Origin: Pseudomonadota bacterium
GTDB taxonomy: Bacteria; Pseudomonadota; Gammaproteobacteria; Burkholderiales; SG8-39
DNA: 64,000 nt
Reading direction: 5' to 3'
NCBI GenBank assembly: GCA_025352885.1
Contig: JANXRZ010000223.1
Span: 33,291 to 97,290, forward strand
Both the position numbers and the translations under genes were made by a program. Position 1 is the stretch's first letter, and the number at the start of each line of letters is the position of its first letter. Shown piece after piece: positions 4,718-30,326 of this stretch. The notes under the pieces are model-generated. The model ran no database searches. It was given only the letters and a program-made list of their open reading frames with translations, and was not told the origin of the DNA.

Positions 4718-5758
4718 TCAGCGCCCGGGCGCGCGCATCTCCGGGTGCACGACGTTGCCGTCCTCGAGGATCTGCACGCCGTCGAGCGTGACGCTGCAGC
4801 CTTTCATCGGCAGGTCCATGTGACAGGGCGTGTCGTTAGTGCCGCCCAACTCGGTGTTCGGCCCGGTGGAAAACAAAACATTGCCGTAAAAGGACAGCGC
4901 GTTCATCACGTGCTCGCTGGCAAGATGCCTGGTCGAGGCGAAGTGATGCCAGTTGGCGCGCTCATTGAGCCCCCAGCCAATGTGGGACACCGCATACCCG
5001 CGCGGGTCGTTGAAGCCTTCGATGTAGCTGCGCATGAGCGTGGCGTCCATGCCCTCGCCTTCGATTGCGGTCACGTAGCCTTTCGCAATGGTGAGGCGCA
5101 CCGGCGTCTGCACATAGCGCTTGAAAGCCGCGAAGATGTCGCCGGGCATCAGCACGACCTTCCCCTCGACCGATCCGTCGTTGCCCTGGGTAAACGAGAA
5201 CCCAGAGGGGAAATGGTCCCAGCGGCCCTTCTCGAACGTGTAGCCGTACTCCGAGATCACCGGGTACTGCGAGAGCTTGTAGCGCACGTCGGTGCCGCCC
5301 TTGGACGTGATGTGCAGGTCCTTGCCTTTCATGAGCAGGGCGCGGGCGTATTCCACCCGGCGGCGCAAATCCTCGGTCGGGAACATCTGCTTCAACACGT
5401 GGAAAGGCTCCATGACGCGCAGCACGCGCGCGCCGCCGGCCTGGATCTCCGCCTGCTCGCGTGAGAACAAGAGGCCCATCATGTCGATGACGAGGTCGGC
5501 TTTCTTCAACGTATCGAGCGCAGCCTGGTTGCCGACGAGCGGGTGGCGGCCCTGGACGCCGGCGACGTTCGCCTGGTTGCGCGGCACGTTGACGTTGAAC
5601 GCCGTGGCGCCGAGGCTTTGCGCCGCCAGCATGAAGGCCTGCGCGTAATCGGCCCATTCGGCGCCCGCGGTCAGCGTGACGACGACTTCGCCCTCGTGGA
5701 CCTTGCACAATTTGAGCTCGGCCGTGAAGAGCGCAAGCATCTCCGCATCGACCGCCAT
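4718..5758 (-). CDS. nicX: 2,5-dihydroxypyridine 5,6-dioxygenase (NicX-like, aminopeptidase-T fold)
   Basis: 346 aa. Long colinear resemblance to Pseudomonas putida NicX as I remember it: GRWDHFPSGF, FNDP..Y.VSHIGWGL, NVLFSTGPNTELGG, TPCHMDLP. This includes the His/His/Asp iron ligands (SHIGWG, CHMD). Confidence 0.85.
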   Translation of the reverse strand: MAVDAEMLALFTAELKLCKVHEGEVVVTLTAGAEWADYAQAFMLAAQSLGATAFNVNVPRNQANVAGVQGRHPLVGNQAALDTLKKADLVIDMMGLLFSREQAEIQAGGARVLRVMEPFHVLKQMFPTEDLRRRVEYARALLMKGKDLHITSKGGTDVRYKLSQYPVISEYGYTFEKGRWDHFPSGFSFTQGNDGSVEGKVVLMPGDIFAAFKRYVQTPVRLTIAKGYVTAIEGEGMDATLMRSYIEGFNDPRGYAVSHIGWGLNERANWHHFASTRHLASEHVMNALSFYGNVLFSTGPNTELGGTNDTPCHMDLPMKGCSVTLDGVQILEDGNVVHPEMRAPGR

Positions 5759-6945
5759 TACAGGACTTCCCCGTTGCCATGCAGCGCTTCGAGGTAGCGG
5801 TTGATCCGGTGATGGATCACCGATTCGAACTCATGCATGGGTCCGCGCACGAAATACTTGGAGTTGAGCCCGCGCTGGATCGCGCGCACGAGGTCGGAGT
5901 CCTCGTCGGCGAATTTGCGCACGAACTTGGCGAGGATGGCCACTTTCTCATCGAACACCGGGCTGCCGACGAAGGACTTCGGCAGGCAGGTCCAGCCGGT
6001 GACGCGCGTCTTGTGGGGGCCGAGCGGATAGCAGACGAACGGCTGCACCATGTCGGCCCGCGCGAACAGGTAGAAGTTCGGGCGCAGGAAAGCCGAAAAT
6101 GCGAACTGCTTGCCTTTCGGGTGGTCCTTGAGCCAGGGCGCGGGCCCGAAGAGCAGTTCGGCGTCCGGCGCCATCGTCCCGCTGACGTATTCCTTGTACC
6201 AGCCGTACTTGGTGAACACGAGCTCGGCCAGCGCCTTCTCGGGCTTGTAGGTGCTGCCGCCGAAGGAATTCCGGTGGATGACCTCGACGTGATAGACATC
6301 GGCAAGGTTCTCCGGGACGAGCTTCCAGTTGCAGTCGAGCTCATAGCTGTACGTGTCGACCAGCACCGTGTCCTCCGGGTGCACGTAGGCGACCGATTGC
6401 CGGTAGTCGTCGGCATCGAGGTAATCGGCGAGCGGTGGCGCCTTCTCGTCGAAGTTGATGAACACGAAGCCGCCCCAGGTCTCCAGGCGGATCGGCGGCA
6501 GCTGGCGCGTTTCCGGGCCGACCTTGATGCCGCGCGGACGTGAGGGCGAAACGAGCGCGCCGTCGAGGTCGTAGACCCACGCATGGTAAGGACAGAGGAA
6601 CTCTTTCGCGTTGCCCGAGCCGATCGCAACCGCAACGCCGCGGTGCCGGCAGACATTGGCGAAAGCCTTGAGCTCCCCTTTGGCATTGCGGCAGACCACG
6701 ACCGGCTCGTCGACAAGCTCGAACGCCCTGTAATCGCCCGGGTTCGGGAATTCCTCCACGCGGCCGACGATCAGCCAGTCCTTGTAGAAGAGCTTCTGCT
6801 TCTCGAGTTCGAAGATCTCGGGCGACGTGTAGTAGTAGGCCGGCAGGTGCCTGGCCTCGGTCACCGGCGCGCGCGTCTGCCTGAGCTCTTCGATGGTGTC
6901 CGGTGCCTCGCCGTTCAAAACCGGGTGTTCGGCGCCCATTCGCAT
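5758..6945 (-). CDS. Rieske [2Fe-2S] non-heme-iron oxygenase, alpha subunit only
   Basis: 395 aa. Rieske motif CRHRG-x16-CPYHAW. Mononuclear iron motif DVYHVEVIH. AAGGAG SD upstream. The stop overlaps the nicX ATG by 1 nt (TAATG). Confidence 0.85.
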   Translation of the reverse strand: MRMGAEHPVLNGEAPDTIEELRQTRAPVTEARHLPAYYYTSPEIFELEKQKLFYKDWLIVGRVEEFPNPGDYRAFELVDEPVVVCRNAKGELKAFANVCRHRGVAVAIGSGNAKEFLCPYHAWVYDLDGALVSPSRPRGIKVGPETRQLPPIRLETWGGFVFINFDEKAPPLADYLDADDYRQSVAYVHPEDTVLVDTYSYELDCNWKLVPENLADVYHVEVIHRNSFGGSTYKPEKALAELVFTKYGWYKEYVSGTMAPDAELLFGPAPWLKDHPKGKQFAFSAFLRPNFYLFARADMVQPFVCYPLGPHKTRVTGWTCLPKSFVGSPVFDEKVAILAKFVRKFADEDSDLVRAIQRGLNSKYFVRGPMHEFESVIHHRINRYLEALHGNGEVL

Positions 6946-6954
6946 CTCCTTGAA

Positions 6955-6968
6955 ACTAAATATTTAGT
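6955..6968. promoter_or_regulatory. Perfect 14-bp palindrome ACTAAATATTTAGT (candidate operator) abutting the Rieske gene RBS
   Basis: The sequence is its own reverse complement. It lies 3 nt upstream of the AAGGAG SD of the Rieske ORF and just downstream of the predicted -10 at 6976-6981. Confidence 0.4.
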
Positions 6969-6975
6969 GTCGTTG

Positions 6976-7003
6976 ATTATCCGCCGGCACCTGGGGCTGT
7001 CAA
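6976..7003 (-). promoter_or_regulatory. Sigma70-like promoter for Rieske-nicX inside the livF/Rieske gap
   Basis: On the minus strand: TTGACA (6998-7003), a 16-nt spacer, then GATAAT (6976-6981). Confidence 0.45.
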
Positions 7004-7011
7004 CCAAACGG

Positions 7012-7728
7012 CTAGCCAAGGTAGGCCTTGCGGACGGTCTCGTTTTCCATGAGTTCGGAGGCCTTTCCTTCGAGCACCACCGTCCCCGTGCTCAGCACAT
7101 ACACGCGGTCGGACGCATGCAACGCAAGGCGCGCGTTTTGCTCGACGATGACGATCGTCATTCCTCCGCGATGCAACGCCATGAGCTTGCGATACAACTC
7201 ATGCACGACGATAGGCGCAAGGCCCAGCGACAGCTCATCCACCAGCAGCAACTTCGGGTCGCCCATGAGCGCGCGGCCGACCGCCAGCATCTGCTGCTCG
7301 CCACCCGATAACGTTTCGGCGAGTTGGGAGGCGCGCTGCTTCAGGACCGGGAACAGCGTGTAGACCGCTTCAAAGCGCTCGCGGCGTCGCTGCGCGTTCC
7401 TGCTGACCAGGTAGCCGCCCATCGCGAGGTTTTCCTCGACCGTCATGGGTCCGAAGACCTGCCGTCCTTCGGGCACCAGCGCAATGCCCCGGCGGACGAT
7501 GTCGAGCGGGGCCATCTTCGAGATGTCCACGCCTTCGAACGTCAGGCTCCCCGCTTCGCGGTCGACCAGGCCGAGGATGGACTTGAGCAGCGTCGTCTTG
7601 CCCGCGCCGTTCGCGCCGATGACGCTGACCAGCTCTCCCGGGCGCACCTCGAGATCCACGCCCTTCAGCGCGACGATCCCGCCGTAGCGGCTCTTAAGCC
7701 CGGAGATCTGCAGCAAGGCTGGATTCAT
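7012..7728 (-). CDS. livF: Branched-chain-amino-acid-type ABC transporter ATP-binding protein (LivF family)
   Basis: Walker A GANGAGKTT, signature LSGGEQQML, Walker B LLLVDELSLGLAP. The ATG at 7728 (MNPALLQISGL) is preferred over the TTG at 7734. Confidence 0.85.
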   Translation of the reverse strand: MNPALLQISGLKSRYGGIVALKGVDLEVRPGELVSVIGANGAGKTTLLKSILGLVDREAGSLTFEGVDISKMAPLDIVRRGIALVPEGRQVFGPMTVEENLAMGGYLVSRNAQRRRERFEAVYTLFPVLKQRASQLAETLSGGEQQMLAVGRALMGDPKLLLVDELSLGLAPIVVHELYRKLMALHRGGMTIVIVEQNARLALHASDRVYVLSTGTVVLEGKASELMENETVRKAYLG

Positions 7729-8485
7729 CGCCAAGGTACGCGGCCACTACGGCCGGGTCGTTCTGGATCTGCGCGGGCGTCCCTTCCGCAAGGGACTGGC
7801 CGAAGTTGAGGACGAAGATTTCATCCGAAATATCCATGATGAGTTCCATGTGGTGCTCGACGAGCAGCACCGTCACGCCACCGTCGCGGATGCGCCGGAT
7901 GAAGCTGCCGAGCTGGGAGGCCTCGCCCGAATTCAGGCCGGCCGCAGGCTCGTCCAACAGCAACAGGGAAGGCTCGGTCGCAAGCGCGCGGGCGATTTCG
8001 AGCAGCCGCTGCTTACCGAAAGGCAGGTCGCCCGCGCGATCGTGCGCGTTGCCGAGCAGGCCCACTTCATCAAGCAGGCGCGCCGCATGCGCCTCGATCT
8101 CCGACTCCTCCGAGCGCGCACGCCCGGTGCGCAGCACGGCCGAAACGAGGCCCGCGTGCGTGCGGCTGTGCCGGCCGGCCATGACGTTCTCGAGCACCGA
8201 CATGTCCGCGAAGAGCTTGAGGTTCTGGAAAGTCCGCGCGACGCCAAGGCGAACGATCCGGTAGGGCTGCAGCAGGTCGATGCGATGGCCGTCGAACCCG
8301 ACTTGTCCGGAATCGAGGCGCTCCAGGCCCGTGATCAGGTTGATGAGGGTGGTCTTGCCGGCGCCGTTCGGCCCGATGATCGCCTTGATGCACCCGCGCG
8401 GCACGCCGAAGCTCACGCCGTCCACCGCCCGCAAGCCACCGAAGGCCTTGCGGATGTCACGCACGTCGAGGAGCGTTTCGGCCAC
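7694..8485 (-). CDS. livG: Branched-chain-amino-acid-type ABC transporter ATP-binding protein (LivG family)
   Basis: GTG start at 8485, 2 nt after the livM stop. GPNGAGKTT, LPFGKQRLLEIARAL, LLLLDEPAAGLN. The 491-aa ORF in the track is an out-of-frame upstream extension over livM. Confidence 0.85.
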   Translation of the reverse strand: MAETLLDVRDIRKAFGGLRAVDGVSFGVPRGCIKAIIGPNGAGKTTLINLITGLERLDSGQVGFDGHRIDLLQPYRIVRLGVARTFQNLKLFADMSVLENVMAGRHSRTHAGLVSAVLRTGRARSEESEIEAHAARLLDEVGLLGNAHDRAGDLPFGKQRLLEIARALATEPSLLLLDEPAAGLNSGEASQLGSFIRRIRDGGVTVLLVEHHMELIMDISDEIFVLNFGQSLAEGTPAQIQNDPAVVAAYLGDESSLAADLRA

Positions 8486-8487
8486 GC

Positions 8488-9465
8488 TCAGCCCGTCTGC
8501 TTCGCGAGCATGCGCTGCCGCAGGCGGTGCTCGATGCCGCCGCCTATGCCGCGAGGCAGGAACATGACGACGAGGATGACGATGGCGCCATAGATCAGCA
8601 CGTCGTAGTCCTTCATCACGCGCAGGTATTCGGGCAGCATCGTGAGGAGGATCGCGCCCAGCAAGCCGCCCCACACGCTGCCCGACCCGCCGACGATCAC
8701 CATCACCACGATCTCGATCGACAGCGTGAAGCCGAAGCTGTCGGGGCTCAGCACCGTCACGTAATGCGCATACAGGCTCCCAGCGAGGGACGCCATGCAG
8801 GCGCCGATCATGAATATCATGACCTTGGTGGCCCACGTGTTGACGCCAACGAGCGCGGCGGCCGTCTCGTCGCCCTGGATGGCGCGCAATGACCGTCCGA
8901 CGCGTGAATCGACCAGGTGAAAGGCGAAGAGCAGCATCGCCCCCACGACCGTCCACACGAGGTAGTAATACGGAAGGTCGCTTGCGATGCGCAGCGACCC
9001 GATCCTGAATTCCGGGATGCCCACCAGGCCCGAAGGCCCGCCGGTGAGCCACGCGAGTTCCACGAACAGGATGTAAAGGATGATGCCGAAGCCGAGTGTC
9101 GCCATGCTGAGGTAGTAGCCCTGCAGGCGCAGCGCAGCGGCACCGATCAGGCCGCTGATCACCGCGCAAATGAACACTGCGGCGATCATCGCAACCCAGG
9201 GATTGAAGCCGTACTTCGTCGTGAGCACGCCCGAGGCATACGCGCCCAGCCCATAGAACCCCGCGTGACCGAGCGAGACCTGCCCCGTGTAGCCCATGAC
9301 GAGGTTGAGGCCGAGCGCGAGCAGCGCATTGATGCCCGCGAGGATGAGGATGCTCAAGTAGTACTTGGTCGGCAGCACCAGCGGGAGCAACGCAATGATG
9401 CAGAGAAACACCGCGAGCGCCGTGCGGTGCGGCAGGCGGTCTACCTGCGAGCGGCTTTTCTTCAT
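8488..9465 (-). CDS. livM: ABC transporter permease (LivM family)
   Basis: 325 aa, strongly hydrophobic multi-pass protein. Position and order match LivH-LivM-LivG-LivF. Confidence 0.8.
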   Translation of the reverse strand: MKKSRSQVDRLPHRTALAVFLCIIALLPLVLPTKYYLSILILAGINALLALGLNLVMGYTGQVSLGHAGFYGLGAYASGVLTTKYGFNPWVAMIAAVFICAVISGLIGAAALRLQGYYLSMATLGFGIILYILFVELAWLTGGPSGLVGIPEFRIGSLRIASDLPYYYLVWTVVGAMLLFAFHLVDSRVGRSLRAIQGDETAAALVGVNTWATKVMIFMIGACMASLAGSLYAHYVTVLSPDSFGFTLSIEIVVMVIVGGSGSVWGGLLGAILLTMLPEYLRVMKDYDVLIYGAIVILVVMFLPRGIGGGIEHRLRQRMLAKQTG

Positions 9466-9466
9466 C

Positions 9467-10348
9467 TCAGGCGCGGCGGCGCGCCGCTTTGCCGAGCAGC
9501 CCCTGCGGGCGCACGAGCAGGACGACGATCAGGAGCAGGAAAGCGATCGCGTCCTTGTAGGCCGACGAGATGAACCCACCGCCGAGCGACTCGAGCACGC
9601 CGAGCAGGAGGCCGCCGACGACCGCTCCCGGGCTGCTGCCCATGCCCCCGAGCACCGCGGCGCTGAAGCCCTTGAGGCCGAGCATCGTGCCGCGATCGAA
9701 CTGCGTGAGCGCCACGGGCGTGATGATGATGCCGGCCACCGCGCCGACCGCCGCAGCCAGCGCGAACGAATAGGCGGTCATGGCCTTGACGTTGATGCCC
9801 ACCAGCGTGGCCGCGAAGCGGTTGGCGGCAACCGCCCGCATGGCTTGCCCGGTCGTCGTGCGATCGAAAAACGCGTGAACCAGCACGACCACGACCATCG
9901 CCGTCCCGATGATCCACAGCGCCTGCGGCAGGAAGCTCGCGCCGAGCACCCGGATCGGCGTATCGCCCGAAAACGACGGCAGGCCGGCCGCGTCCTTGCC
10001 CCACATCAGCATGGCCGAGCCCTTGAGGAAGATCGAGCCGCCGATCGTGATGATGATCATGTTGGTGAGCGACACATGGCGCAGCGGCGCGAGCGTCAGG
10101 CGCTCGAGGAGCAGGCCGATCACGGTGACGATTGCAACGGAACCGGCAAAGGCGGCGATCATCGGCAGCCCGGCGCCGAACAGTGCGACCGCCGTCATGC
10201 CGCCGAGCATCACGAATTCGCCCTGCGCGAAGTTGATCGCCTCGGTTGCCGTGTAGACGATCGTAAAACCCAGCGCGATCAGCGCATAGATGCTGCCCAC
10301 CATGAGCCCGGAGAAAACGAACTGCAGGAGCAGGTCGGTGGTGGTCAA
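9467..10348 (-). CDS. livH: ABC transporter permease (LivH family)
   Basis: 293 aa, hydrophobic. N-terminus LLQFVFSGLMVGSIYALIALGFTIVY is typical of LivH. The TTG start overlaps the stop of the upstream 2Fe-2S subunit gene (TTGA). Confidence 0.8.
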   Translation of the reverse strand: MTTTDLLLQFVFSGLMVGSIYALIALGFTIVYTATEAINFAQGEFVMLGGMTAVALFGAGLPMIAAFAGSVAIVTVIGLLLERLTLAPLRHVSLTNMIIITIGGSIFLKGSAMLMWGKDAAGLPSFSGDTPIRVLGASFLPQALWIIGTAMVVVVLVHAFFDRTTTGQAMRAVAANRFAATLVGINVKAMTAYSFALAAAVGAVAGIIITPVALTQFDRGTMLGLKGFSAAVLGGMGSSPGAVVGGLLLGVLESLGGGFISSAYKDAIAFLLLIVVLLVRPQGLLGKAARRRA

Positions 10349-10824
10349 GGCTTGTCTCTGAGGACCCTGGCCGCCGCCTTCACGGCTTCATGAATGGACA
10401 CGTACCCCGTGCAGCGGCACAAGTTGCCGCTCAACGCCTCGCGGATCTCGTCGTCGGTCGGGTCGGGGTTCTCTTCGAGGAACGCGGTGAGGCTCATGAG
10501 GAAGCCCGGCGTGCAGAAGCCGCATTGCAGGGCGTGCGCCTCGTGAAAAGCCTGCTGCAGCGGATGCAGCGTCTTGCCGTCCGCGAGCCCTTCCACCGTG
10601 CGGATGTCGCTGCCGTCGGCCTGCACCGCGTAAAGCAGGCATGAGCGGACCGCGACGCCATCCATGTGGATCGTGCAGGCGCCGCAGACGCCCTGCTCGC
10701 AGCCGATGTGCGTGCCCTTGAGGCCCAGGGTGTCGCGCAGGAAATCGGCGAGGCTGCGCCGAGGCTCGGCACTCGCCTCAAAGTCCTTGCCGTTCACCCG
10801 CAGGCGGATTGTCCTTTCGCTCAT
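10345..10824 (-). CDS. Molybdenum hydroxylase small subunit, [2Fe-2S]-binding (CoxS/XdhC-type)
   Basis: Starts at [12 protein letters not shown]. Cys clusters [10 protein letters not shown] and CGFCTPG...CRCTGY. ATGA overlap with the FAD subunit gene. Confidence 0.9.
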
Positions 10825-14023: not shown

Positions 14024-14061
14024 TCGAGCCCCTTGCGCGCTTTAGCCTTGCCCGGCCCGGC

Positions 14062-15204: not shown

Positions 15205-15417
15205 GGAAATCCCCTTGGCAGGCGCTTGAGAAAAGTGACTTGAAAGTTCGCGGATCCGCCACCCGGAAGGTGGCCCGGCATACATCGAATCGCCGACACA
15301 GAATATATCGGACATCCTGCATGTCCAGCAGTTCTTCGATGCGTATATCGCCTCGATTACCTCAAGGCTTATGCAAAAAGCGAATACCGGAAGATGGCCG
15401 GGTTTCGCCGAGGTGGC

Positions 15418-18159: not shown

Positions 18160-18200
18160 TCTCAGGAGCGCAGTGCGAAGGATGGAAGGGAGCGTTCTGG

Positions 18201-21819: not shown

Positions 21820-22346
21820 ACGGGACCGGAATGAACGAAACGATCGAAACCATCGAAGTGGCCTTCTCGCTGAACACGAAGCCGGCCAGCGCGTCGTTCG
21901 AGCCGCGCGAGCTGCTGATCGACGTGCTGCGCGAAAAGTTCGGCCTGCGCGGGGCCAAGCGGTCCTGCGACCTCGGTGTGTGCGGGGCCTGCACCGTGCT
22001 GGTCGACGGCCTGCCCTGCTCCAGCTGCTCGACCCTTGCAGCCGACGTGGCCGGCCGGAAGGTCACGACCATCGAAGGCCTCGGCACGCCGCAGGCGCTC
22101 GACCCGATCCAGCAGGCCTTCATCGACCACGGCGCCCTGCAATGCGGTTTCTGCACGCCGGGCATGGTGCTGGCCGTGAAAGCGCTGCTCGCCTCCAACG
22201 AGTCGCCGACCGAAGACGAGGTCCGCCACTACCTGCACGGCAACGTCTGCCGCTGCACCGGTTACGTCAAGATCATCGAAGCCGTAATGGGCCTCGCAAA
22301 AAAACGCGGGGTCGACACTAAAACCATAGAGGGAAATTCCGCATGA
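21816..22346 (+). CDS. Molybdenum hydroxylase [2Fe-2S] subunit (CoxS-type)
   Basis: 176 aa. CDLGVCGACT and CGFCTPG...CRCTGY clusters. Confidence 0.9.
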   Translation: MNGTGMNETIETIEVAFSLNTKPASASFEPRELLIDVLREKFGLRGAKRSCDLGVCGACTVLVDGLPCSSCSTLAADVAGRKVTTIEGLGTPQALDPIQQAFIDHGALQCGFCTPGMVLAVKALLASNESPTEDEVRHYLHGNVCRCTGYVKIIEAVMGLAKKRGVDTKTIEGNSA

Positions 22347-23311: not shown

Positions 23312-23323
23312 GCGAGCACGCCG

Positions 23324-24715
23324 ATGAACAGGCCCGCCGCTGCCCTTTCCGAGCCTGCCTCCGAGCCGGCCTTCGCGCTTGCCGAAGGCGTCGCGGCGCT
23401 GCGATACGAGCAGCTCCCCAAGGCGACGGTCTCGTCGGCGCAGCGCCTCGTGCTCGATTCGTTGGCCGTGGCGCTCGCAGGCCGCGGCTGCAAGGATGTG
23501 GAGGCGCTCTACGCGCTCGCAACGGAGTGGGGCGGCCATCCGCAGGCCGCCATAATCGGCTCGCGGTCCCGCGTGCCCGCCCCGGTCGCCGCGCTGGTGA
23601 ATGGCACGATGATCCAGGCGCTCGACTTCGACGACACGCATGATCCGACGGCTGCGCATACCGCATCGACAGTGCTCGCCTCCGCGCTTGCGGTGTGCGA
23701 GTTGCGCGGCCGCTCGGGCAAGGACCTCATCGCCGCGACGACCGCGGGCATCGAAATGGCCGCGCGCGTCGGCCTCGCCTGCACCGACACGATCGGCTGG
23801 ACCAGCACGGCGATCTACGGGGCCTTTGGCGCCGCCGCCGCCGCGGCCCATGCGCTGGGGCTCGACGCGGAAAAAACCCGCCACACGTTCGGCATCGTGA
23901 TCAGCCAGACCGCGGGGACGACCCAGACGGCGGTCGATTGGCCGCTTTCAAAGCACATGCAATCGGGCTTTTCTGCGCGGGCGGGCGTCCTGTCGGCCCT
24001 CCTCGCGGAAAAAGGCGTGACGGGCGTCGAGAATGTGTTCGAAGGGAAGTTCGGGTTTTTCCGGCTTTACAAGGCCGACCGGTACACGACCGCACCGCTC
24101 TTCGCGCCGTGGTGGAAAACGTTCCACATCGATGATCTCGCGCTGAAGCCTTATCCCTCGTGCCGGGCCACCCACGCGCCCGTCGATGCGGCGCTTGCGC
24201 TCTCACGGGACGTGGACGCTCGAGAGATCGCCGACATCCGTATCGTCGTGCCGCCGGTCGCGCGGCAACTGGCCGGAAAGAAATTCACCGAAGGCGACAA
24301 CCCCATGATCTCGGCGCAGTTCAGCATCGAGTACACGGTCGCCACCGCCCTGCTCCGCCGCAGCTTGTCGCTTGCGCACTTCAACCTGGAGGCGATCCGC
24401 GATCCCGCGATTCACGCGCTCATGCAACGCATGCGCATCGAGACCGGGGAAGGATCGGACTTCGCGCCGGCGACGATCGAACTCACCACCACGTCCGGGA
24501 GGAAACTGGCGCACACCGCATCGGCGCTCAAGGGCGATCGCGCGTCCCCGTTGTCGGAGGCCGAGCTTGCGGCAAAAATCCGGGACTGCTTAGCCTTCGC
24601 GCCGCATGGTGCCACCAGCCTCGACGCCGGGGGCTTGCAACGCGCGGTCGAAACCTTGCCCGAATCCGATACCAAGTCGCTGATCGCCGCACTTACTCCC
24701 GGGGGGGATCCATGA
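23324..24715 (+). CDS. MmgE/PrpD-family protein (2-methylcitrate dehydratase superfamily)
   Basis: 463 aa. Typical family N-terminus (LRYEQLP...LVLDSLAVALAG, NGTMIQALDFDDTH). Confidence 0.8.
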   Translation: MNRPAAALSEPASEPAFALAEGVAALRYEQLPKATVSSAQRLVLDSLAVALAGRGCKDVEALYALATEWGGHPQAAIIGSRSRVPAPVAALVNGTMIQALDFDDTHDPTAAHTASTVLASALAVCELRGRSGKDLIAATTAGIEMAARVGLACTDTIGWTSTAIYGAFGAAAAAAHALGLDAEKTRHTFGIVISQTAGTTQTAVDWPLSKHMQSGFSARAGVLSALLAEKGVTGVENVFEGKFGFFRLYKADRYTTAPLFAPWWKTFHIDDLALKPYPSCRATHAPVDAALALSRDVDAREIADIRIVVPPVARQLAGKKFTEGDNPMISAQFSIEYTVATALLRRSLSLAHFNLEAIRDPAIHALMQRMRIETGEGSDFAPATIELTTTSGRKLAHTASALKGDRASPLSEAELAAKIRDCLAFAPHGATSLDAGGLQRAVETLPESDTKSLIAALTPGGDP

Positions 24716-25425
24716 ACGCTGCCGTGAACGTCGCGCAAGCCGAGCCCGAAGCGCCGCAGTCGAACCTGCACCGCGTTCCCAAGGTCGATCACGCGCAAAA
24801 CCTGCCGGGCCATGTGCAGCAGATGCTCCTCGAGGCGATCCTCACCCGTGTGCTCGTGCCGGGCGAAAGGCTGCTCATCGACGAGATCGCCGCGCATTTC
24901 GGCATCAGCAAGATTCCGGTGCGGGAAGCCGTCAAGGCGCTGGTCGCGAGCGGGTGGCTGGAATCGCAGCCGCGGCGCGGAACCTACGTCCCGACGCTTT
25001 CCGAACAAGAGCTGCGCGAAGTGTTCGAAATGCGCCGCATGCTCGAGCCCTACGCCGCCCGCAAGGCGGCCGAGCGGCGAACGGATGCGCAGCTCGCGGA
25101 GTTGCGCGTGCTGATCGCGGAGGGCACCGAATCGATCAAGCAGCGCGACATCCTCATGAATTCGCGCATCAACACCCGCTTTCATACCGTTATCGCCGAG
25201 GCCGTGGGAAACCGCATCATCTGCGAGTCGCTCAAGGATCTCCAGTCGCGCATCCGGCGCTACTACGTCGAGATCGACTGGAAGATCCGGCGCGATTCCT
25301 TTGCCGAGCACAAGCGGCTCTTCGAGGCGATCCGCGACCGGGATGGCGACCTCGCGGAGAAACTGACGAACGAGCACCTCGATCACGCCGAGTCTTTTGC
25401 CGAGCGGCCCACGAATGGAGCATGA
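24712..25425 (+). CDS. GntR-family transcriptional regulator with FCD ligand domain
   Basis: The ATG at 24712 overlaps the PrpD stop (ATGA). wHTH IAAHFGISKIPVREAVKAL. FCD-like C-terminal half (MRRMLEPYAARKAA...FHTVIAEAVGN...H..LFEAI). Confidence 0.88.
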   Translation: MNAAVNVAQAEPEAPQSNLHRVPKVDHAQNLPGHVQQMLLEAILTRVLVPGERLLIDEIAAHFGISKIPVREAVKALVASGWLESQPRRGTYVPTLSEQELREVFEMRRMLEPYAARKAAERRTDAQLAELRVLIAEGTESIKQRDILMNSRINTRFHTVIAEAVGNRIICESLKDLQSRIRRYYVEIDWKIRRDSFAEHKRLFEAIRDRDGDLAEKLTNEHLDHAESFAERPTNGA

Positions 25426-25429
25426 AAAA

Positions 25430-26398
25430 ATGAAGTCCTGGCTGAAGGCCGTCCTGCTGGCCGCGCTCTGCGCATCTGCGTTCGGCGCGCGCGCCCAGGA
25501 GTACCCCTCGAAGGTCATCACCATCGTCGCGCCTTACCCGGCCGGGGGCAGCATCGACCTCGTCGCCCGGATCATCGGCAAGCGGCTCAGCGAAAACCTG
25601 GGGCAAGCCGTCATCGTGAAGAACATCCCGGGCGCGGGTGGCACCGTAGGCACGACGGCCGTGGCGAAGTTGCCGGCCGACGGCTATACGCTGCTGCTTG
25701 GGAGCAACGGGCCCAACACGATGGCCCCGAGCCTTTACACAACTCTCGGTTACGACGGGGAAAAGGATTTCGCGCCGATCACGCTGCTTGCCGTGCAGCC
25801 GATGATGTTCTGCGTCGACACCGGATCGCCCCTCAAGTCGGTGCGCGATCTCATTGCGCTCGGGAAGACGAAGGACAAGAAGGCGGTCTATGGGACGGCG
25901 GGCGTCGGGTCGGCCGCGCATCTCACCGGCGAGCTCTTCAACTCGATGTCCGGCGCGGCGCTCGCCCACGTTCCTTACAAGGGCACGGCGCCCCTGACGC
26001 TGGCAATCATCAGCGGGGAAATCCCGGTGGGCATCATCTCGGCCATCGACGCAGTCCCGCAACTCAAGGGCGGCAAGCTGCGCGTGCTGGCCGTTTCGAC
26101 TTCAAAGCGCTCGCCCGCGGCGCCTGAAGCGCCCACCATCGCAGAGGCCGGCGTGCCGGGATTTCACATGGATGTCTGGTACGGCCTCATGGCGCCCGCC
26201 AACACGCCCAAGGCCATCGTCGACCGGCTGAACAAGGAAACCGTCGCCATCCTTGCCGAGCCCGCCATCCGCGCGCGCCTGCTCGAGTTGGGCGCCGAGG
26301 CCAGCCCCAACACGCCGGAGCAATTTACCGCGCTGGTTAAAAGCGATATCGCGAAGTACGCCCCGATCGTCAAGATGTCCGGGGCCAAGGCCGAGTGA
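25430..26398 (+). CDS. Bug/TctC-family substrate-binding protein
   Basis: Start MKSWLKAVLLAALCASAFGARAQEYPSKVITIVAPYPAGGS, i.e. signal peptide plus Bug signature. Confidence 0.88.
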   Translation: MKSWLKAVLLAALCASAFGARAQEYPSKVITIVAPYPAGGSIDLVARIIGKRLSENLGQAVIVKNIPGAGGTVGTTAVAKLPADGYTLLLGSNGPNTMAPSLYTTLGYDGEKDFAPITLLAVQPMMFCVDTGSPLKSVRDLIALGKTKDKKAVYGTAGVGSAAHLTGELFNSMSGAALAHVPYKGTAPLTLAIISGEIPVGIISAIDAVPQLKGGKLRVLAVSTSKRSPAAPEAPTIAEAGVPGFHMDVWYGLMAPANTPKAIVDRLNKETVAILAEPAIRARLLELGAEASPNTPEQFTALVKSDIAKYAPIVKMSGAKAE

Positions 26399-26426
26399 AA
26401 GGCCGCCTGGCGCGCGGCGCCGGCGC

Positions 26427-27368
26427 CTAGGCCAGCAGGCTCTTGTCCACCATCGCGTGGATGCCCTTGAAGCCATCCACCAGCTGCGTCACCCGCAGAT
26501 CGCAGGCGAGGCTGCAGAAGGTATAGGCGTCTTCAGGCGCCCAGCCCTTGAGCTCGCCGAGCCACTTGATCATCTCGCGCAGCGCCTGCTTGGCCGCGTC
26601 GTCGAGGTCCGGGTCGGTGCCCATCGAGATGTAGTGCGTGGGGGTAACAGCGCGAGGAAAGGTCAGCGACTTGCCCTTGTGCAGGATGAGCTCGAAGGTC
26701 CCGCTCATCGCGGTCTCCAGCGCCATCAGGTTCACTTCGCCGTCGCCCTGCACGGCATGCCCGTCACCGGCTGAGAACAGCGCGCCGTCGGCCCAGACCG
26801 GCAGGAACAGCGTCGTGCCCGCAACCAGTTCCTTGCAATCGATATTGCCGCCGAACTCGCGCGGCTCCACTGACGACACCGCGCCATATTCCGGCCGCGG
26901 CGCCACGGCCATGATCCCGAAGAACGGTTTCAACGGAATCGTCGGGCCGAACGGCAGCTTCGCGGTCATCTTCTCGCGGTCGAGCGGGATCTGCAGGATG
27001 CGCAGTATCGGGAAATCTTCCGGCAGCGTGCCGCGCAGCGGCTTGATGCCGTTGTAGGACCAGTCGGTGCGCAGCTCGACTTTTTTGATGCGCACTTCGA
27101 GCGTGTCGCCCCTTTTCGCCCCGCGCACTGCAACGGGCCCCGTGAGGATGTGCGGCCCGAGATAGGGCTTCACCTTGTCGAGGATCGCGCGGTGCTCAGG
27201 CAGGAGGTCCGTGCGATGGCCGACTTCGCCGGGCCCGCCCGACACGCAGTTCAACGTTACGGTCTCGCCCGAGTCGATCGTGAGGTGGGGTTTGAGCTTT
27301 GCGTCGAAGAATCCCCAGTGGACATTTTCGGGCGATGCGGTGAGCGTGTGGTGTGCGGTCATGGACAT
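26427..27368 (-). CDS. Acetamidase/formamidase-family (FmdA/AmdA) amidohydrolase
   Basis: Start MSMTAHHTLTASPENVHWGFFD with GGAG SD upstream. LFSAGDGHAVQGDGEV and TGPVAVRGAKRGDTLEV are family-typical. Confidence 0.8.
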   Translation of the reverse strand: MSMTAHHTLTASPENVHWGFFDAKLKPHLTIDSGETVTLNCVSGGPGEVGHRTDLLPEHRAILDKVKPYLGPHILTGPVAVRGAKRGDTLEVRIKKVELRTDWSYNGIKPLRGTLPEDFPILRILQIPLDREKMTAKLPFGPTIPLKPFFGIMAVAPRPEYGAVSSVEPREFGGNIDCKELVAGTTLFLPVWADGALFSAGDGHAVQGDGEVNLMALETAMSGTFELILHKGKSLTFPRAVTPTHYISMGTDPDLDDAAKQALREMIKWLGELKGWAPEDAYTFCSLACDLRVTQLVDGFKGIHAMVDKSLLA

Positions 27369-27448
27369 TTTTCTCCGACTGAATTCTCTTGCGTGGATGC
27401 TACCATCGCCGCCCGCATGCAGCCTTCGATCCCAACGGACCCCCAAGC

Positions 27449-28330
27449 GTGAGCGACAAGAAAATCTATCTCGACTACGACCAGGCCGGGCTCGACGCGC
27501 AGTACAACAATCGACTGCGCTGGCCGGACTACAAGGAGCACTTCGCGAACTGGCGCAAGTGGAGCGAGGAATCCTGTGCGAAGCTTCCCTGCCATCGCGA
27601 TCTCGCCTTTGGGCCGGGCCCGATGGAGAAGCTCGACATCCTCCCGGCGGAAAAACAAAATGCAGCGATCGTCGTCTTCATCCACGGCGGTTACTGGTAT
27701 TCGCTCGACAAGGCCGACTACAGCTACGTAGCCGAAGGCCTGCGCCCGCACGGCATAATAACGGCGGTCAACAATTTCGGCCTCGCGCCGGATACGTCCA
27801 TGGACGAGATCGTTCGCCAGAATCGCGCAGCCCTCGCCTGGCTCTGGCGCAATGCGCGCACCTACGGAGCGGACCCGGATCGGATCTATGTATGCGGCCA
27901 CTCGGCCGGCGGCCACCTGGCCGTCATGCTCCTCGCGACCGACTGGCCCGCGTTCGAGCCGGGACTGCCGAAGGATCTCGTCAAAGGCGCGTGCTCCATT
28001 GGCGGGCTCTTCGACATGGAGGCGATCCGCCTGTCCTACCTGAACAAGACGTTGAAGATGAGCGAAGAGGAAGCGCGGCGAAACGAGCCGCTCTCGCAAG
28101 CCTATCCGGTGAAGGCCCCGCTTTCGCTCGTCGTGGCGATCGACGAAACCCCCGAGTACCACCGCCAGTCCGAAGCCATGGCGAAGCTCTGGAAAGGGCT
28201 CGGGTACCCTGTGGACTTGCTGGTTCCGCCGGGCGTCAACCATTTCGATGTGGTGAACCAGCTGCGCGACCCGAACTGCGAGCTCGTGAAAGTCATGCTC
28301 GCGGAAATGCGGAAAGCTTTTAAGCACTAA
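27449..28330 (+). CDS. Alpha/beta hydrolase, arylformamidase / esterase-lipase (HGG) type
   Basis: HGGYW oxyanion motif and GHSAGGHL nucleophile elbow. The start is uncertain: GTG 27449 or TTG 27389, neither with a clear SD. Confidence 0.7.
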   Translation: MSDKKIYLDYDQAGLDAQYNNRLRWPDYKEHFANWRKWSEESCAKLPCHRDLAFGPGPMEKLDILPAEKQNAAIVVFIHGGYWYSLDKADYSYVAEGLRPHGIITAVNNFGLAPDTSMDEIVRQNRAALAWLWRNARTYGADPDRIYVCGHSAGGHLAVMLLATDWPAFEPGLPKDLVKGACSIGGLFDMEAIRLSYLNKTLKMSEEEARRNEPLSQAYPVKAPLSLVVAIDETPEYHRQSEAMAKLWKGLGYPVDLLVPPGVNHFDVVNQLRDPNCELVKVMLAEMRKAFKH

Positions 28331-28343
28331 CGAAGGAGAAGCC

Positions 28344-29312
28344 ATGACGAAAACCATTCTCGCCCTGACTGCGGCGCTGCTCGCTGCGCCCTGGGTTCAC
28401 GCCCAGGACGCCTACCCGTCGAAGCCCGTCACCGTGGTCGTGCCGTTCTCGCCGGGCGGCATCTCGGACGTGATCGGGCGCCCCTTCGCGCATTCGCTCG
28501 GCAAGGCGCTCAAGCAGAGCTTCATCATCGAGAACCGCCCGGGCGCCGGAGGCGGCGTCGGCATGGCGTACGCCGCGCGCGCCAAGCCGGACGGCTATAC
28601 GGTCATGGTGGCCCTCTCGAGCATTTCCGCCATCCCTGCGTCCGACCGGTTGTTCGGCCGACCGCCCTCGTACGAGATCAAGCAGTTCGCGCCCATCGCC
28701 CTCATCAGCGCCGACCCCGCCTTCATCGTGGTGCGGGGCGACAGCCCGTGGAAATCCGTCAAGGACCTCGTTGACGCTGCGAAGGCGAAACCCGGCGCGA
28801 TCCCCTACGGCTCGACCGGCAACTACGGCACGATGCACGTGGGCATGGAGATGTTCACCAACGCCGCGGGCATCAAGATGAATCACATCCCGTACGGCGG
28901 CGGGGGCCAGCAGGTGGCCGCGATCCTCGGCAGCCAGGTCGAGGCCATCACGCAATTGCCCGCCACGCTCGCCGGGCACATCGCCGGCGGGAAGCTCCGT
29001 CCGCTTGCGACTTTCGCGCCGGCACGCGTCCCGGCCTACCCGGACGTGCCGACGATGAAGGAGCTTGGCTACGCGGACGTGGAGTACTTCGTGTGGACCG
29101 GCTTCTTTGCCCCCGTGGGCGTGCCGGCCGACGTGCTTGCAACGTTACGACGGGGCGCGCGCGACGCGGCGCAGGATCCCGAGTTCAGGAGCGCCATGGA
29201 GAAGCTGAAGGCGCCCGTCGTGTACAAGGATGCGGACGAGTTTGCCGCTTATCTCGACGCGGACGCCAAGCGCCTGGGCACCGTCATCCAGAAAATCGGC
29301 AAGGTGGAATAA
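28344..29312 (+). CDS. Bug/TctC-family substrate-binding protein
   Basis: 322 aa. Signal peptide, then DAYPSKPVTVVVPFSPGG. Confidence 0.88.
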   Translation: MTKTILALTAALLAAPWVHAQDAYPSKPVTVVVPFSPGGISDVIGRPFAHSLGKALKQSFIIENRPGAGGGVGMAYAARAKPDGYTVMVALSSISAIPASDRLFGRPPSYEIKQFAPIALISADPAFIVVRGDSPWKSVKDLVDAAKAKPGAIPYGSTGNYGTMHVGMEMFTNAAGIKMNHIPYGGGGQQVAAILGSQVEAITQLPATLAGHIAGGKLRPLATFAPARVPAYPDVPTMKELGYADVEYFVWTGFFAPVGVPADVLATLRRGARDAAQDPEFRSAMEKLKAPVVYKDADEFAAYLDADAKRLGTVIQKIGKVE

Positions 29313-29336
29313 GCGCGGCGAACGCCCAAGCAGTGC

Positions 29337-30326
29337 ATGAACCGAATCGCCTACGTCACCGGCAGTAACGGCTTTCTCGGCCTCAACTTGTGTGAGGCGC
29401 TCCTCGAACGCGGCTGGCGAGTGCTCGCGCTGCACCGGGCGACTTCCAATACGAGATACCTCAAGTGCCTTGCCGTCGAACCGGTCGAGGGCGACATCAA
29501 CGACCGGGCCTCGCTCGCGCGCACGTTGCCAAACGCAGTGGATGCGGTGTTTCATGTCGCCGGCAGCACTAACCTGTGGTCGAAAAGAAATGCCGAGCAG
29601 GACCGCATCAACGTCGAGGGCACCCGCAACGTCGTGGCAGCGGCGCTTGCGGCAGGCGCCAAACGATTCGTGCACACCTCGAGCATTTCGGCGTGGGGCA
29701 TGCGATCGGGCACGATCGACGAAACCGACGAGCAACTCGGCCACGTGTCGCCGGTGAACTACCAGCGCTCCAAGCACCTTGCCGAAAAAGAGGTGCTCGC
29801 AGGCATCACAAGGGGACTCCAGGCAGTCATTGTCTGCCCGGCTGCGATCATCGGTCCCTACGACACTGCAACTTATGCGCGCCTGTTCCGCATGGTCCAC
29901 GCCGACAAGCTGCCCGGAGTGCCGCCGGGTTCGCTGTCCTTCTGCGACGTTCGTGAAGTGGCGAAGGCCCACATTGCAGCGGCGGAGCGCGGCCGGGTCG
30001 GTGAGCGCTACCTGCTCGGCGGCGAAGATGCGAGTTACATGGACCTGGTCAGGATCATCTGCGAGATCGCCGGAAGGCAGGCTCCGAGCCGCGCAACGCC
30101 CGCATGGCTGCTCAAGACGATCGGGTCGCTCGCCGAGTCCGTTGCATCGCTCTCAGGAAAAGAACCGACGATGACCCGCGACGCCGCCACCATGGTGACG
30201 CGCAAGCTGTTCTGCAACTGTGAAAAGGCGCAGCGCGAACTCGGTTTCCGGCCGGTGCCGCTCAGGAAGATGGCGGAGGACTGCTACACCTGGATGAAGG
30301 TGGAAGGACATCTTGAAATAGCGTAA
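29337..30326 (+). CDS. NAD-dependent epimerase/dehydratase-family (extended SDR) oxidoreductase
   Basis: 329 aa. VTGSNGFLG Rossmann motif and a YxxxK region (YQRSKHLAEK). Confidence 0.8.
   Translation: MNRIAYVTGSNGFLGLNLCEALLERGWRVLALHRATSNTRYLKCLAVEPVEGDINDRASLARTLPNAVDAVFHVAGSTNLWSKRNAEQDRINVEGTRNVVAAALAAGAKRFVHTSSISAWGMRSGTIDETDEQLGHVSPVNYQRSKHLAEKEVLAGITRGLQAVIVCPAAIIGPYDTATYARLFRMVHADKLPGVPPGSLSFCDVREVAKAHIAAAERGRVGERYLLGGEDASYMDLVRIICEIAGRQAPSRATPAWLLKTIGSLAESVASLSGKEPTMTRDAATMVTRKLFCNCEKAQRELGFRPVPLRKMAEDCYTWMKVEGHLEIA

Follow-up and report, generated by a model that had tools for sequence, protein, structure and literature searches.

Why should the genes of one short catabolic route be cut in two by a second set of oxidising genes? 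The question is raised by a 64-kb stretch of DNA (hereafter the window), in which nicX, the gene for the ring-cleaving enzyme of 2,5-dihydroxypyridine (2,5-DHP) catabolism, is separated from nicD, nicF and a nicC-like gene by a block encoding an importer, a molybdenum (Mo) hydroxylase and a Rieske oxygenase, with a second Mo hydroxylase encoded on the far side. The window (65% G+C) is betaproteobacterial, and its nearest relatives in the genome collection are Alcaligenaceae/Bordetella-labelled metagenome-assembled genomes (MAGs). Open reading frames (ORFs) were taken from a six-frame listing, assigned to families by Pfam, NCBIfam and PDB sequence searches and compared with about 90 related loci, which are numbered (L003 and so on) where they have to be told apart. 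Searching one genome per species with the large subunit of the second hydroxylase (CoxL2) gave 52 loci, on which, together with two plasmid loci, all window proteins were mapped.

We consider it probable, judging from sequence, that positions 4718-26398 are a 2,5-DHP locus in which two independent upper modules feed one lower pathway, and that the second of these, module B, was inserted. Module A comprises nicC-nicF-nicD on the minus strand, coxL2-SRPBCC-FAD-FeS-tctC-mmgE-gntR-tctC on the plus strand and nicX; module B comprises livK-coxL1M1S1-livHMGF and the Rieske gene. We infer the substrates, the order of the reactions and the pairing of regulator with operator. An initial annotation, made from the DNA alone, had named these genes, and all were recovered where it had placed them by the Pfam, NCBIfam and PDB searches, including an eight-gene divergent operon with a second, four-component Mo hydroxylase (18222-26398) and a separation of about 9.6 kb between nicX and nicD (5759-15417, 9,659 bp). 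Of its interpretation, the 2,5-DHP locus and the converging upper pathways stand; a canonical NicC does not, and the comparison lends no support to MmgE/PrpD as a feeder or to the membership of two genes on the right, tctC3 and a short-chain dehydrogenase/reductase (SDR) gene. The features of the two modules are as follows, with refined starts for nicF (16934), nicD (16242), livK (15204) and tctC2 (25430).

4718-5758, minus strand: nicX, 2,5-dihydroxypyridine 5,6-dioxygenase, common to both modules (match to 7cn3, E 3e-84)
5758-6945, minus strand: alpha-only Rieske non-haem-iron oxygenase, module B (Pfam Rieske and Ring_hydroxyl_A)
6946-7011, minus strand: 66-nt gap 5' of the Rieske gene (read from sequence)
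7012-7728, minus strand: livF, HAAT-family ABC importer, module B (Pfam; ABC_tran and BCA_ABC_TP_C among the livFGMH domains)
7694-8485, minus strand: livG, HAAT-family ABC importer, module B (Pfam)
8488-9465, minus strand: livM, permease/ATPase set, module B (Pfam; BPD_transp_2 among the livFGMH domains)
9467-10348, minus strand: livH, permease/ATPase set, module B (Pfam)
10345-10824, minus strand: coxS1, xanthine-dehydrogenase-family Mo hydroxylase, module B (Pfam)
10821-11696, minus strand: coxM1, Mo hydroxylase, module B (Pfam)
11693-14023, minus strand: coxL1, Mo hydroxylase large subunit, module B (Pfam)
14062-15204, minus strand: livK-type periplasmic binding protein, module B (Pfam Peripla_BP_6, 1e-58)
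15205-15417, minus strand: 213-nt intergenic region 5' of livK (read from sequence)
15418-16242, minus strand: nicD-like alpha/beta hydrolase, predicted N-formylmaleamate deformylase, module A (Pfam Abhydrolase_1, Abhydrolase_6)
16242-16934, minus strand: nicF-like isochorismatase-family amidohydrolase, predicted maleamate amidohydrolase, module A (Pfam Isochorismatase)
16957-18159, minus strand: NicC-family group A FAD monooxygenase, predicted decarboxylating hydroxylase giving 2,5-DHP, module A (PDB matches)
18204-18219, no strand: 16-bp palindrome ATATAGTATACTTTAT, predicted operator, in the 62-nt divergent region between nicC and coxL2
18222-20498, plus strand: coxL2, Mo hydroxylase large subunit, module A (Pfam)
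20495-20947, plus strand: SRPBCC/CoxG subunit, 150 aa, overlapping the genes for the large and FAD subunits, module A (Pfam)
20947-21819, plus strand: FAD subunit, module A (Pfam)
21816-22346, plus strand: 2Fe-2S subunit, module A (Pfam)
22343-23311, plus strand: tctC1, TTT-family periplasmic receptor, predicted for the module A substrate (Pfam TctC, 3e-73)
23324-24715, plus strand: MmgE/PrpD-family protein (Pfam MmgE_PrpD_N, _C)
24712-25425, plus strand: GntR/FadR-type (FCD) transcriptional regulator (Pfam GntR, FCD)
25430-26398, plus strand: tctC2, second TTT-family receptor (Pfam TctC, 4e-62)

The divergent operon thus runs from the Mo large subunit through the CoxG/SRPBCC, FAD and 2Fe-2S subunits to TctC, MmgE/PrpD, GntR/FCD and the second TctC, which gives the corrected subunit order of the four-component enzyme as L-SRPBCC-FAD-FeS.

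The lower pathway

The product of nicX matches Pseudomonas putida NicX (7cn3), and in alignment to it keeps all four Fe(II) ligands (His265, Ser302, His318 and Asp320) and the substrate contacts Glu177 and His189. The position of His105 is occupied by Phe, and the H105F variant of NicX is active according to the study that lists these ligands and contacts (PMC7910607). Because of the strength of the match and the conservation of ligands and contacts the nicX assignment is secure at the level of sequence. The NicF-like protein has the isochorismatase fold with a conserved Cys motif, GCTTSGCVRA, and matches Bordetella bronchiseptica NicF (3ot4/3uao) at 1e-28, with N-carbamoylsarcosine amidohydrolase equal to it at 6e-30; the NicD-like protein has a GHSMG nucleophile elbow, and nicD is syntenic in L003-L006, L055, L001, L002, L025, L026, L034 and L040. 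For both proteins family, catalytic motifs and synteny agree, which supports them at the family level, and sequence alone does not separate either from its paralogues. Thus, where kinship to paralogues was at issue in the initial annotation, NicX is clearly NicX-like, while NicF is tied with the carbamoylsarcosine enzyme and the NicC-like protein with tropone 2-monooxygenase. In the predicted sequence of reactions NicX would convert 2,5-DHP to N-formylmaleamate, NicD would remove formate from the latter, and NicF would convert maleamate to maleate and ammonia. The gene families and the NicX residues together support the original assignment of the locus as a 2,5-DHP (maleamate-pathway) cluster.

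A NicAB-type cytochrome-c hydroxylase, a maleate isomerase, a MarR- or TetR-type regulator and a porin were not found among the long ORFs of the window scanned with Pfam, which bears out the observation that NicAB, NicE, NicR/NicS and NicT/NicP are missing locally. In Alcaligenaceae 2,5-DHP clusters maiA is sited elsewhere, and the absence of a local NicE is normal there (bioRxiv 10.1101/530550; 10.1101/171595). The sole maleate-isomerase-like candidate in the window is ORF 54700-55692 (plus strand, probable start 54949), a member of the Asp/Glu-racemase superfamily matching Pfam Amdase at 1.6e-17 and, below the cut-off, NCBIfam EutA at 8e-19. It is probably not NicE, given these weak matches to EutA and arylmalonate decarboxylase and the sequence VGTNL at the site where, we assume, maleate isomerases carry their second catalytic Cys.

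Two recurring modules and the split between them

Module A recurs by itself in two forms. In the compact form, seen on large Variovorax plasmids as well as in Bordetella petrii, B. muralis, B. tumbae and B. sputigena, genes for TctC, L, SRPBCC, FAD, FeS, the monooxygenase and the isochorismatase make up an operon, with the hydrolase and NicX genes adjoining; the regulators of this form are of the IclR type, and MmgE/PrpD is missing. In the second form, seen in Usitatibacter (L006) and a JGI metagenome contig (L055), nicD-nicF-nicC is divergent from L-SRPBCC-FAD-FeS-tctC-mmgE-nicX-gntR-tctC, and the window has this form, but with nicX on the other side. The four hydroxylase genes keep the same order in at least 40 loci, a TctC gene lies beside them in most loci, and every nic-type locus has a NicC-family monooxygenase gene with the hydroxylase. 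In a maximum-likelihood tree of CoxL2 all nic-associated loci fall into one beta/gamma-proteobacterial clade (support 100/100), and the nic association needs 3 changes on this tree as against 13.1 with shuffled labels.

Module B likewise recurs. In L059, whose proteins are 80-95% identical to those of the window, nicF, gntR and the Rieske gene are divergent from livK-coxL-coxM-coxS-livHMGF-nicX, with livHMGF in the same order (84-93%), LivK at 95% and CoxLMS1 at 87%. In L056 the CoxL gene (86%) is divergent from the Rieske gene (79%), which is followed by GntR, NicF and NicD, and in L085 the Rieske gene (76%) is divergent from CoxL-CoxM-CoxS-NicX-NicF, with CoxL at 62%. In the more distant versions L057, L058, L086, L087 and L088, which are without a Mo enzyme, Rieske-NicX precedes genes for a Liv importer, NicF, an Abhydrolase_3-type hydrolase and GntR. 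Nine loci were compared, the window among them: in 6 the Rieske gene stands directly upstream of NicX and in 8 it belongs to a NicX cluster, and the remaining one, on a truncated contig, still has NicF and NicD. Because of this constant company the Rieske oxygenase is, to judge from gene neighbourhoods, a dedicated partner of NicX, and the Liv importer with the Mo hydroxylase forms, on the same grounds, a conserved unit. Rieske orthologues are many (66-80% identity), all of them from metagenomes or MAGs, and a tblastn search of a plasmid collection with the Rieske, CoxL1 and MmgE proteins returned distant matches (at most 38%, 44% and 36% identity, respectively) with no usable context.

These neighbourhoods bear directly on the suggestion that module B has nothing to do with pyridines and is a cassette for the uptake and oxidation of amino acids or quaternary amines that landed here by chance. 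Liv-type importers and GbcA/CntA-like Rieske enzymes do usually handle amino acids and betaines, and the block is missing in relatives; against this, 8 of the 9 Rieske orthologues lie in a cluster with NicX, NicF or the hydrolase and the ninth still has NicF and NicD nearby, the importer-hydroxylase operon of L059 ends in nicX, and the hpa cluster imports 5-hydroxypicolinate by a Liv-type system (bioRxiv 10.1101/171595). We therefore regard such a chance landing as highly improbable.

The origin of the split is best seen in the closest relatives. In DNA alignment the colinearity of L003 and the window extends from mutS up to and including nicX, after which L003 passes directly to nicD, window position 5759 corresponding to L003 7867 and window position 15458 to L003 7920, at an overall nucleotide identity of about 79% (CoxL2 87%). 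In L005, too, nicX adjoins nicD with no block between. The window sits between L005 and the L003/L004 pair in the CoxL2 tree, and since these relatives flank it a single gain is more parsimonious than two precise losses. Most simply, the 9,659-bp block would thus be an insertion of module B between nicX and nicD. In the NicX tree the window copy clusters with those that occupy the same mutS-proximal position in L003 and L005, and not with that of L059 (77% identical), while the block proteins are 84-95% identical to those of L059; because of this disparity the data are consistent with the acquisition of an L059-like module B without its NicX. Flanking repeats, transposase genes, mobile-element signatures and a compositional break were sought around the 9.66-kb block and not found. 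The gene-neighbourhood comparison proposed with the initial annotation thus finds each upper module recurring alone and explains the exact split by a fusion of two modules. Likewise, its idea of a funnel, with more than one upper pathway converging on one lower pathway, agrees with the independent recurrence of the modules and the absence of the block from the nearest relatives.

The same comparison weighs on the alternative of one linear pathway that would degrade a single compound bearing more substituents, for instance a pyridine dicarboxylate or a pyridine carboxylate methylated at N, with no two feeders at all. The genes are indeed contiguous with many overlapping junctions; the stop codon of the Rieske gene overlaps the start of nicX (TAATG), which couples the two in translation; the nearest solved relatives of the Rieske protein (CntA, GbcA type and Stc2) are N-demethylating or C-N-cleaving enzymes; and the relatives of the MmgE/PrpD protein include a decarboxylase. 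Nevertheless, each module is found complete and alone elsewhere with its own lower-pathway genes, the closest relatives keep module A without the block, and the importers, as well as, in other loci, the regulators, differ between the modules. Hence a single linear pathway seems to us rather improbable, and we retain two modules on one lower pathway.

Further rearrangements are seen at this site. In L003 (8696-8714) and L004 (7841-7919) nicF is absent, in L004 together with nicX, and the hydroxylase, monooxygenase, MmgE and GntR genes are kept; either the missing lower-pathway genes lie elsewhere or the pathway is decaying there. In L005, a MAG labelled Bordetella parapertussis, the stretch 1-9900 carries a second NicC-like gene (Gln at the His47 site) and a TctC gene between nicD and nicF, with a further CoxL/TctC/CoxS/CoxM set past nicX. 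Judged by gene order, the mutS-proximal site appears to be a hot spot at which upper-pathway modules are added.

Predicted chemistry and regulation of the modules

We propose that in module A a TctC receptor would deliver a pyridine carboxylate, most simply nicotinate, that the four-component Mo hydroxylase would act in place of NicAB and hydroxylate the carbon adjoining the ring nitrogen (C6 of nicotinate), and that the NicC-family flavoenzyme would carry out a decarboxylating hydroxylation at C3 to give 2,5-DHP. A carboxylate is suggested because it fits a TctC receptor, and nicotinate because it, unlike picolinate or isonicotinate, can be turned into 2,5-DHP by just a Mo hydroxylase plus a decarboxylating flavoenzyme; 3-hydroxypyridine fits less well since no monooxygenase would then be needed. 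On these sequence-based grounds nicotinate is the simplest candidate, and we regard the case for it as evenly balanced. The PDB matches of TctC1 gave no help with the ligand, as BugE-like, BugD, Bug27 and terephthalate-binding proteins score alike.

The Mo hydroxylase itself differs from NicAB, reportedly an enzyme of two subunits with cytochrome c domains in the large one and no FAD subunit (Jimenez et al. 2008): in both window hydroxylases FAD_binding_5 is on a subunit of its own, and a cytochrome c domain is absent. The active-site loops of CoxL in aerobic CO dehydrogenases read AYXCSFR (form I) or AYRGAGR (form II), and neither was found in the two large subunits, coxL1 reading SYRGPGMYE; the NCBIfam models for CO dehydrogenase were below cut-off, as was the best NCBIfam match of coxLMS1 (673 as against 950 bits). 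By analogy with CoxG, from which the idea of membrane tethering comes, the free SRPBCC subunit may tether the hydroxylase to the membrane and so replace the respiratory link of the cytochrome c domains in NicB.

The monooxygenase had been named NicC at 18159-16957, and its family and position are as that name implies. Its best PDB matches are tropone 2-monooxygenase (8rqh, 5e-62) and P. putida NicC (5eow, 5e-59), and the equivalents of His211 and Tyr215 are kept. In NicC the pair of His47 and Tyr215 in the active site is said to be important (Hicks et al. 2016). The first member of this pair is replaced in the window by Trp49, within the motif GAGLWLS, and all 15 module A orthologues that align at the site, from Variovorax to Usitatibacter, have GAGLW[LI]S. 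PDB entry 8uiq differs from 5eow solely by His/Gln at the 47 position. Because the same motif is found in all 15, the enzyme appears, from its sequence, to represent a distinct conserved subfamily of decarboxylating group A flavoproteins and is not a canonical NicC.

An entirely different role for the hydroxylase would follow if it were a 3-hydroxypyridine dehydrogenase of the HpdA type, yielding 2,5-DHP directly and leaving the NicC-like enzyme to another substrate. The 3hpd cluster (HpdA1A2A3A4) of Ensifer adhaerens HP1 does encode a four-component enzyme, the one characterised Mo hydroxylase with a separate SRPBCC subunit, together with NicX/D/F-type genes, a GntR regulator and an ABC importer, and 3hpd-like clusters are reported mainly in Burkholderiales (bioRxiv 10.1101/2020.01.08.898148). 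However, 1) the gene order is L-SRPBCC-FAD-FeS and not A1(Mo)-A2(FeS)-A3(SRPBCC)-A4(FAD); 2) genes for a phosphoenolpyruvate (PEP)-utilising protein and a pyruvate-phosphate dikinase, both essential for HpdA activity in that direct formation of 2,5-DHP (bioRxiv 10.1101/2020.01.08.898148), are absent among the scanned long ORFs of the window; 3) a TctC carboxylate-type receptor accompanies the hydroxylase in most loci and the monooxygenase does so in every nic-type locus, as both do in the window, unlike in 3hpd; and 4) matches on Ensifer plasmids are only about 34% identical. An HpdA-type function is thus very improbable. The window hydroxylases are set apart from HpdA and PicA here by the published descriptions of gene order and gene content.

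The MmgE/PrpD-family protein reaches 33 bits with the PrpD equivalogs of NCBIfam, whose cut-offs are 575-950 bits, and by this measure is not PrpD; its nearest PDB entries are IDS epimerase (4e-43) and then IRG1/CAD (cis-aconitate decarboxylase). The gene has the same position in L003, L004, L006 and L055, and a TctC gene follows gntR in L055, L006 and L005 as well. Its orthologues (46% identity or above) make up a small clade of some 40 clusters, every one of metagenome or MAG origin. The neighbours of two of them, at 58-59% identity, are other Mo hydroxylases, an amidohydrolase or FAA-family hydrolase and NMT1-type importers, and NicX, NicF and NicD are absent from these loci. Hence, of the view that this protein feeds the pathway, the presence of the gene in the divergent operon stands, and the loci of its orthologues, which do without NicX, lend that view no support. 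At 1-2173, directly 5' of nicD, L055 has another MmgE/PrpD gene with a gene for a D-2-hydroxyacid dehydrogenase behind it.

Two roles may be considered. The protein might supply the last step, hydrating or isomerising maleate in place of NicE: in L006 and L055 no other enzyme of the conserved module A is without an assignment, and the one step left to assign is that of maleate isomerase; substrates of the family are cis-unsaturated di- and tricarboxylates, cis-aconitate and 2-methyl-cis-aconitate among them; and the pairing with a D-2-hydroxyacid dehydrogenase gene in L055 is in line with such a role. Yet compact module A operons do without MmgE/PrpD, the 58-59% orthologues occur in loci without NicX, NicF and NicD, and the Alcaligenaceae normally keep their maleate isomerase elsewhere in the genome, so that we regard this role as unlikely. 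Because those orthologues sit with other Mo hydroxylases and without NicX, an upper-pathway role is slightly favoured over maleate handling, for instance the decarboxylation of 6-hydroxyquinolinate to 6-hydroxynicotinate, for which the second TctC protein would serve as receptor.

For module A a candidate operator can be named. The palindrome ATATAGTATACTTTAT (18204-18219) contains a GTATAC that occurs nowhere else in the first 46 kb of the window, and it is kept at the same intergenic position in all five GntR-bearing relatives, with the consensus ATAAAGTATACT(T/A)TAT: ATAAAGTATACTTTAT in L006 and L055, ATAAAGTATACTATAT in L003 and L004, and ATATAGTATACTTTAT in L005. The regulator is 87-90% identical in L003-L005, and the palindrome is absent from all seven checked loci without the GntR gene (L001, L002, L025, L040, L009, L012 and L043). 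DipR, the GntR/FadR repressor of the dipicolinate (dip) cluster of Alcaligenes faecalis JQ135, binds GTATAC, the core of an operator mapped by experiment (PMC11472048), and the window has the same combination of GntR and FCD domains with a palindromic GTATAC in a divergent promoter. Since the site is conserved together with the GntR gene and shares the core of the DipR site, the GntR/FCD protein is predicted, by this analogy, to repress both divergent operons of module A through 18204-18219. In the window and L006 the palindrome ends 2-3 nt before the ATG of the hydroxylase gene, leaving no room for a Shine-Dalgarno sequence.

In module B the ABC system would import a second pyridine compound, CoxLMS1 would hydroxylate it next to the ring nitrogen, and the Rieske monooxygenase would add the para hydroxyl, for example converting a 2-hydroxypyridine-type intermediate to 2,5-DHP; the module would have entered the window lineage as the 9.66-kb block. 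In versions without a Mo enzyme the Rieske protein alone would have to yield the NicX substrate, and versions with CoxLMS would therefore add one prior hydroxylation. Most likely, to go by gene content, the substrate is a pyridine needing two ring hydroxylations. The motifs of the Rieske alpha subunit are intact (CRH-X17-CPYH and DVYHVEVIH), and the nearest PDB entries to LivK are 3sg0, 4dqd, 3tx6, 3ukj and 4jb0, which we take to be aromatic-acid receptors of Rhodopseudomonas. We rejected the possibility that Rieske and CoxLMS1 together form a PicB-like four-component 6-hydroxypicolinate monooxygenase, as PicB consists of alpha, beta, ferredoxin and reductase components and there is no PicC here. 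The livG and livF genes overlap by about 35 nt in both the window (7694-7728) and L059 (16296-16330), an unusually long and conserved overlap.

The gaps of module B have promoter-like sequence without a GTATAC site. The 66-nt gap 5' of the Rieske gene contains TTGACA (6993-7003 region), GATAAT (6976-6981) and the palindrome ACTAAATATTTAGT (6955-6968), none of which is conserved 5' of the Rieske genes in L056 and L059, and no convincing common operator was found 5' of the Rieske gene or livK in the window, L056 and L059. Module B in L056 and L059 has a different, longer GntR-family regulator that is absent from the window.

The Rieske alpha subunits that travel with CoxLMS1 might be reduced by the FeS and FAD subunits of the Mo hydroxylase. 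No ferredoxin or reductase gene was found in the window or in the annotated parts of L059, where the importer-hydroxylase stretch was annotated by homology to window genes, and L056, with CoxL as the neighbour of the Rieske gene, has none either on a contig that ends inside CoxL; of the five versions that lack CoxLMS, two have such a gene in the operon, for a Rieske ferredoxin in L086 and for a ferredoxin reductase in L057. The pattern is weakened by L085, where a reductase gene lies some 5 kb away from that for the Rieske protein, and we think this arrangement quite improbable. If true, the two electrons of the water-derived first hydroxylation would pay for the O2-dependent second one, and the conversion of a pyridine to 2,5-DHP would be redox-neutral without NAD(P)H.

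Several points weigh against two feeders and an inserted module B. Given the absence of His47, which is the main reason for doubting nicotinate, 6-hydroxynicotinate is not assured as the substrate of the monooxygenase; the Variovorax orthologues, too, bear from PGAP only the name 'FAD-dependent monooxygenase'. Alphaproteobacterial homologues of the large subunit (60-65% identity) have no nic genes within 10 kb, and because of these the four-component hydroxylase family is, by its gene contexts, not tied to pyridines. For the Rieske oxygenase no ferredoxin or reductase gene was seen among the window ORFs scanned. The absence of nicF from L003 and L004 means that deletions do occur at the locus, so that two precise losses of the block, though less parsimonious than insertion, may have taken place. 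Finally, the window DNA has been seen in rock and sediment metagenomes only, so that the host is known from metagenomes alone.

Known systems, neighbouring genes and wider meaning

With the nic cluster of P. putida KT2440 the locus shares homologous NicX, NicD-like and NicF-like proteins and the succession of a Mo hydroxylase, a NicC-family flavin monooxygenase and ring cleavage. It differs in having a four-subunit enzyme with FAD and a free SRPBCC protein for the two-subunit cytochrome-c NicAB, Trp at His47, TctC for NicT/NicP, GntR/FadR for NicR/NicS, no local NicE and an extra MmgE/PrpD gene. The pic cluster of A. faecalis JQ135 (picolinate; bioRxiv 10.1101/530550) resembles module B in proceeding by a Mo hydroxylase and a Rieske-type hydroxylation to 2,5-DHP and the same lower pathway. 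PicB, however, has four components (alpha, beta, ferredoxin and reductase) as against the lone alpha subunit of the window, the SRPBCC domain of PicA is fused to the FeS subunit, and the decarboxylase PicC (amidohydrolase_2) has no counterpart in the window; L088, a distant Rieske locus, carries an Amidohydro_2 gene. The architecture thus matches neither P. putida nic nor pic as described for A. faecalis, as had been suspected at the outset. The hpa cluster of the same strain (5-hydroxypicolinate; bioRxiv 10.1101/171595) has a Liv-type importer in an operon with NicD/X/F homologues, a NicC-related decarboxylating flavoenzyme and a maleate isomerase encoded elsewhere, but is without a Mo hydroxylase or Rieske oxygenase and has a TetR-type regulator. 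With dip and DipR (PMC11472048) the window shares a GntR/FCD regulator in a pyridine-carboxylate cluster from the Alcaligenaceae with a GTATAC operator, where binding by the window regulator is presumed; the catabolic genes differ, and dip needs neither Mo cofactor nor maleate isomerase. No identical characterised cluster was found in the searchable literature, which covers few subscription-journal papers. Hence, as read from sequence, the lower pathway is that known from nic, pic, hpa and 3hpd, and the upper modules match none of these, while precedents exist for the free SRPBCC protein, the Liv-type importer, a GntR/FadR regulator with a GTATAC operator and a remote maleate isomerase.

To the right of the modules lie:

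26427-27368, minus strand: fmdA, FmdA/AmdA-family amidase (family searches)
27449-28330, plus strand (start refined to 27449): abh, HSL-type alpha/beta hydrolase with HGG and GHSAG motifs (family searches)
28344-30326, plus strand: tctC3 and an extended SDR/epimerase-type oxidoreductase (family searches)

The families assigned to these genes were found as annotated (26427-30326). The fmdA gene is near the cluster in L003 and L004 (92%) and abh in L004 (86%), both about 3.3-3.6 kb beyond gntR there, and this conserved neighbourhood in two close relatives makes a link of fmdA and abh to the pathway possible; tctC3 and the SDR gene, seen in none of the related nic-type loci that were mapped, show no such link. 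Homologues of abh (38-41% identity) adjoin a second, deeply divergent type of NicX (39-44% identical to window NicX) in L011, L012, L043, L057, L058, L086 and L087. There this NicX is regularly paired with an Abhydrolase_3/HSL-type hydrolase and no NicD-type one, which suggests, from gene order, that the partner probably serves as a non-homologous N-formylmaleamate deformylase.

Farther along, 31934-37266 encodes a family III CoA-transferase, a TctC protein, two acyl-CoA dehydrogenase-like ORFs and an enoyl-CoA hydratase, a separate carboxylate/CoA catabolic unit, next to a gene for a cNMP-binding MscS-type channel (30414-31937). In Rhodopseudomonas palustris 2.1.18 (L049, 1-19100) a homologue of the four-component hydroxylase at 60% identity is accompanied by TctC/TctA, two luciferase-like oxidoreductases, a creatinase/M24 protein, a PLP enzyme and F420-biosynthesis genes (a CofH-type radical-SAM protein, CofC and CofD), a context unrelated to nic and apparently undescribed.

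Among the compounds with a pyridine ring are NAD, nicotinate, picolinate, dipicolinate, alkaloids and many agrochemicals. The 2,5-DHP route is the main aerobic way of mineralising such rings, and of its feeder enzymes only a handful have been characterised. The locus and its relatives would define two unstudied feeder modules, widespread in uncultured and cultured Betaproteobacteria: 1) a NicAB-independent four-subunit hydroxylase with a Trp-type clade of NicC, and 2) a pair of Mo hydroxylase and Rieske oxygenase linked to NicX. The cultured carriers of module A, with their Variovorax plasmids, make the main hypothesis directly testable. If that hypothesis holds, the window would be a natural example of how a catabolic funnel is assembled, by placing a complete second upper pathway between two genes of the lower one.

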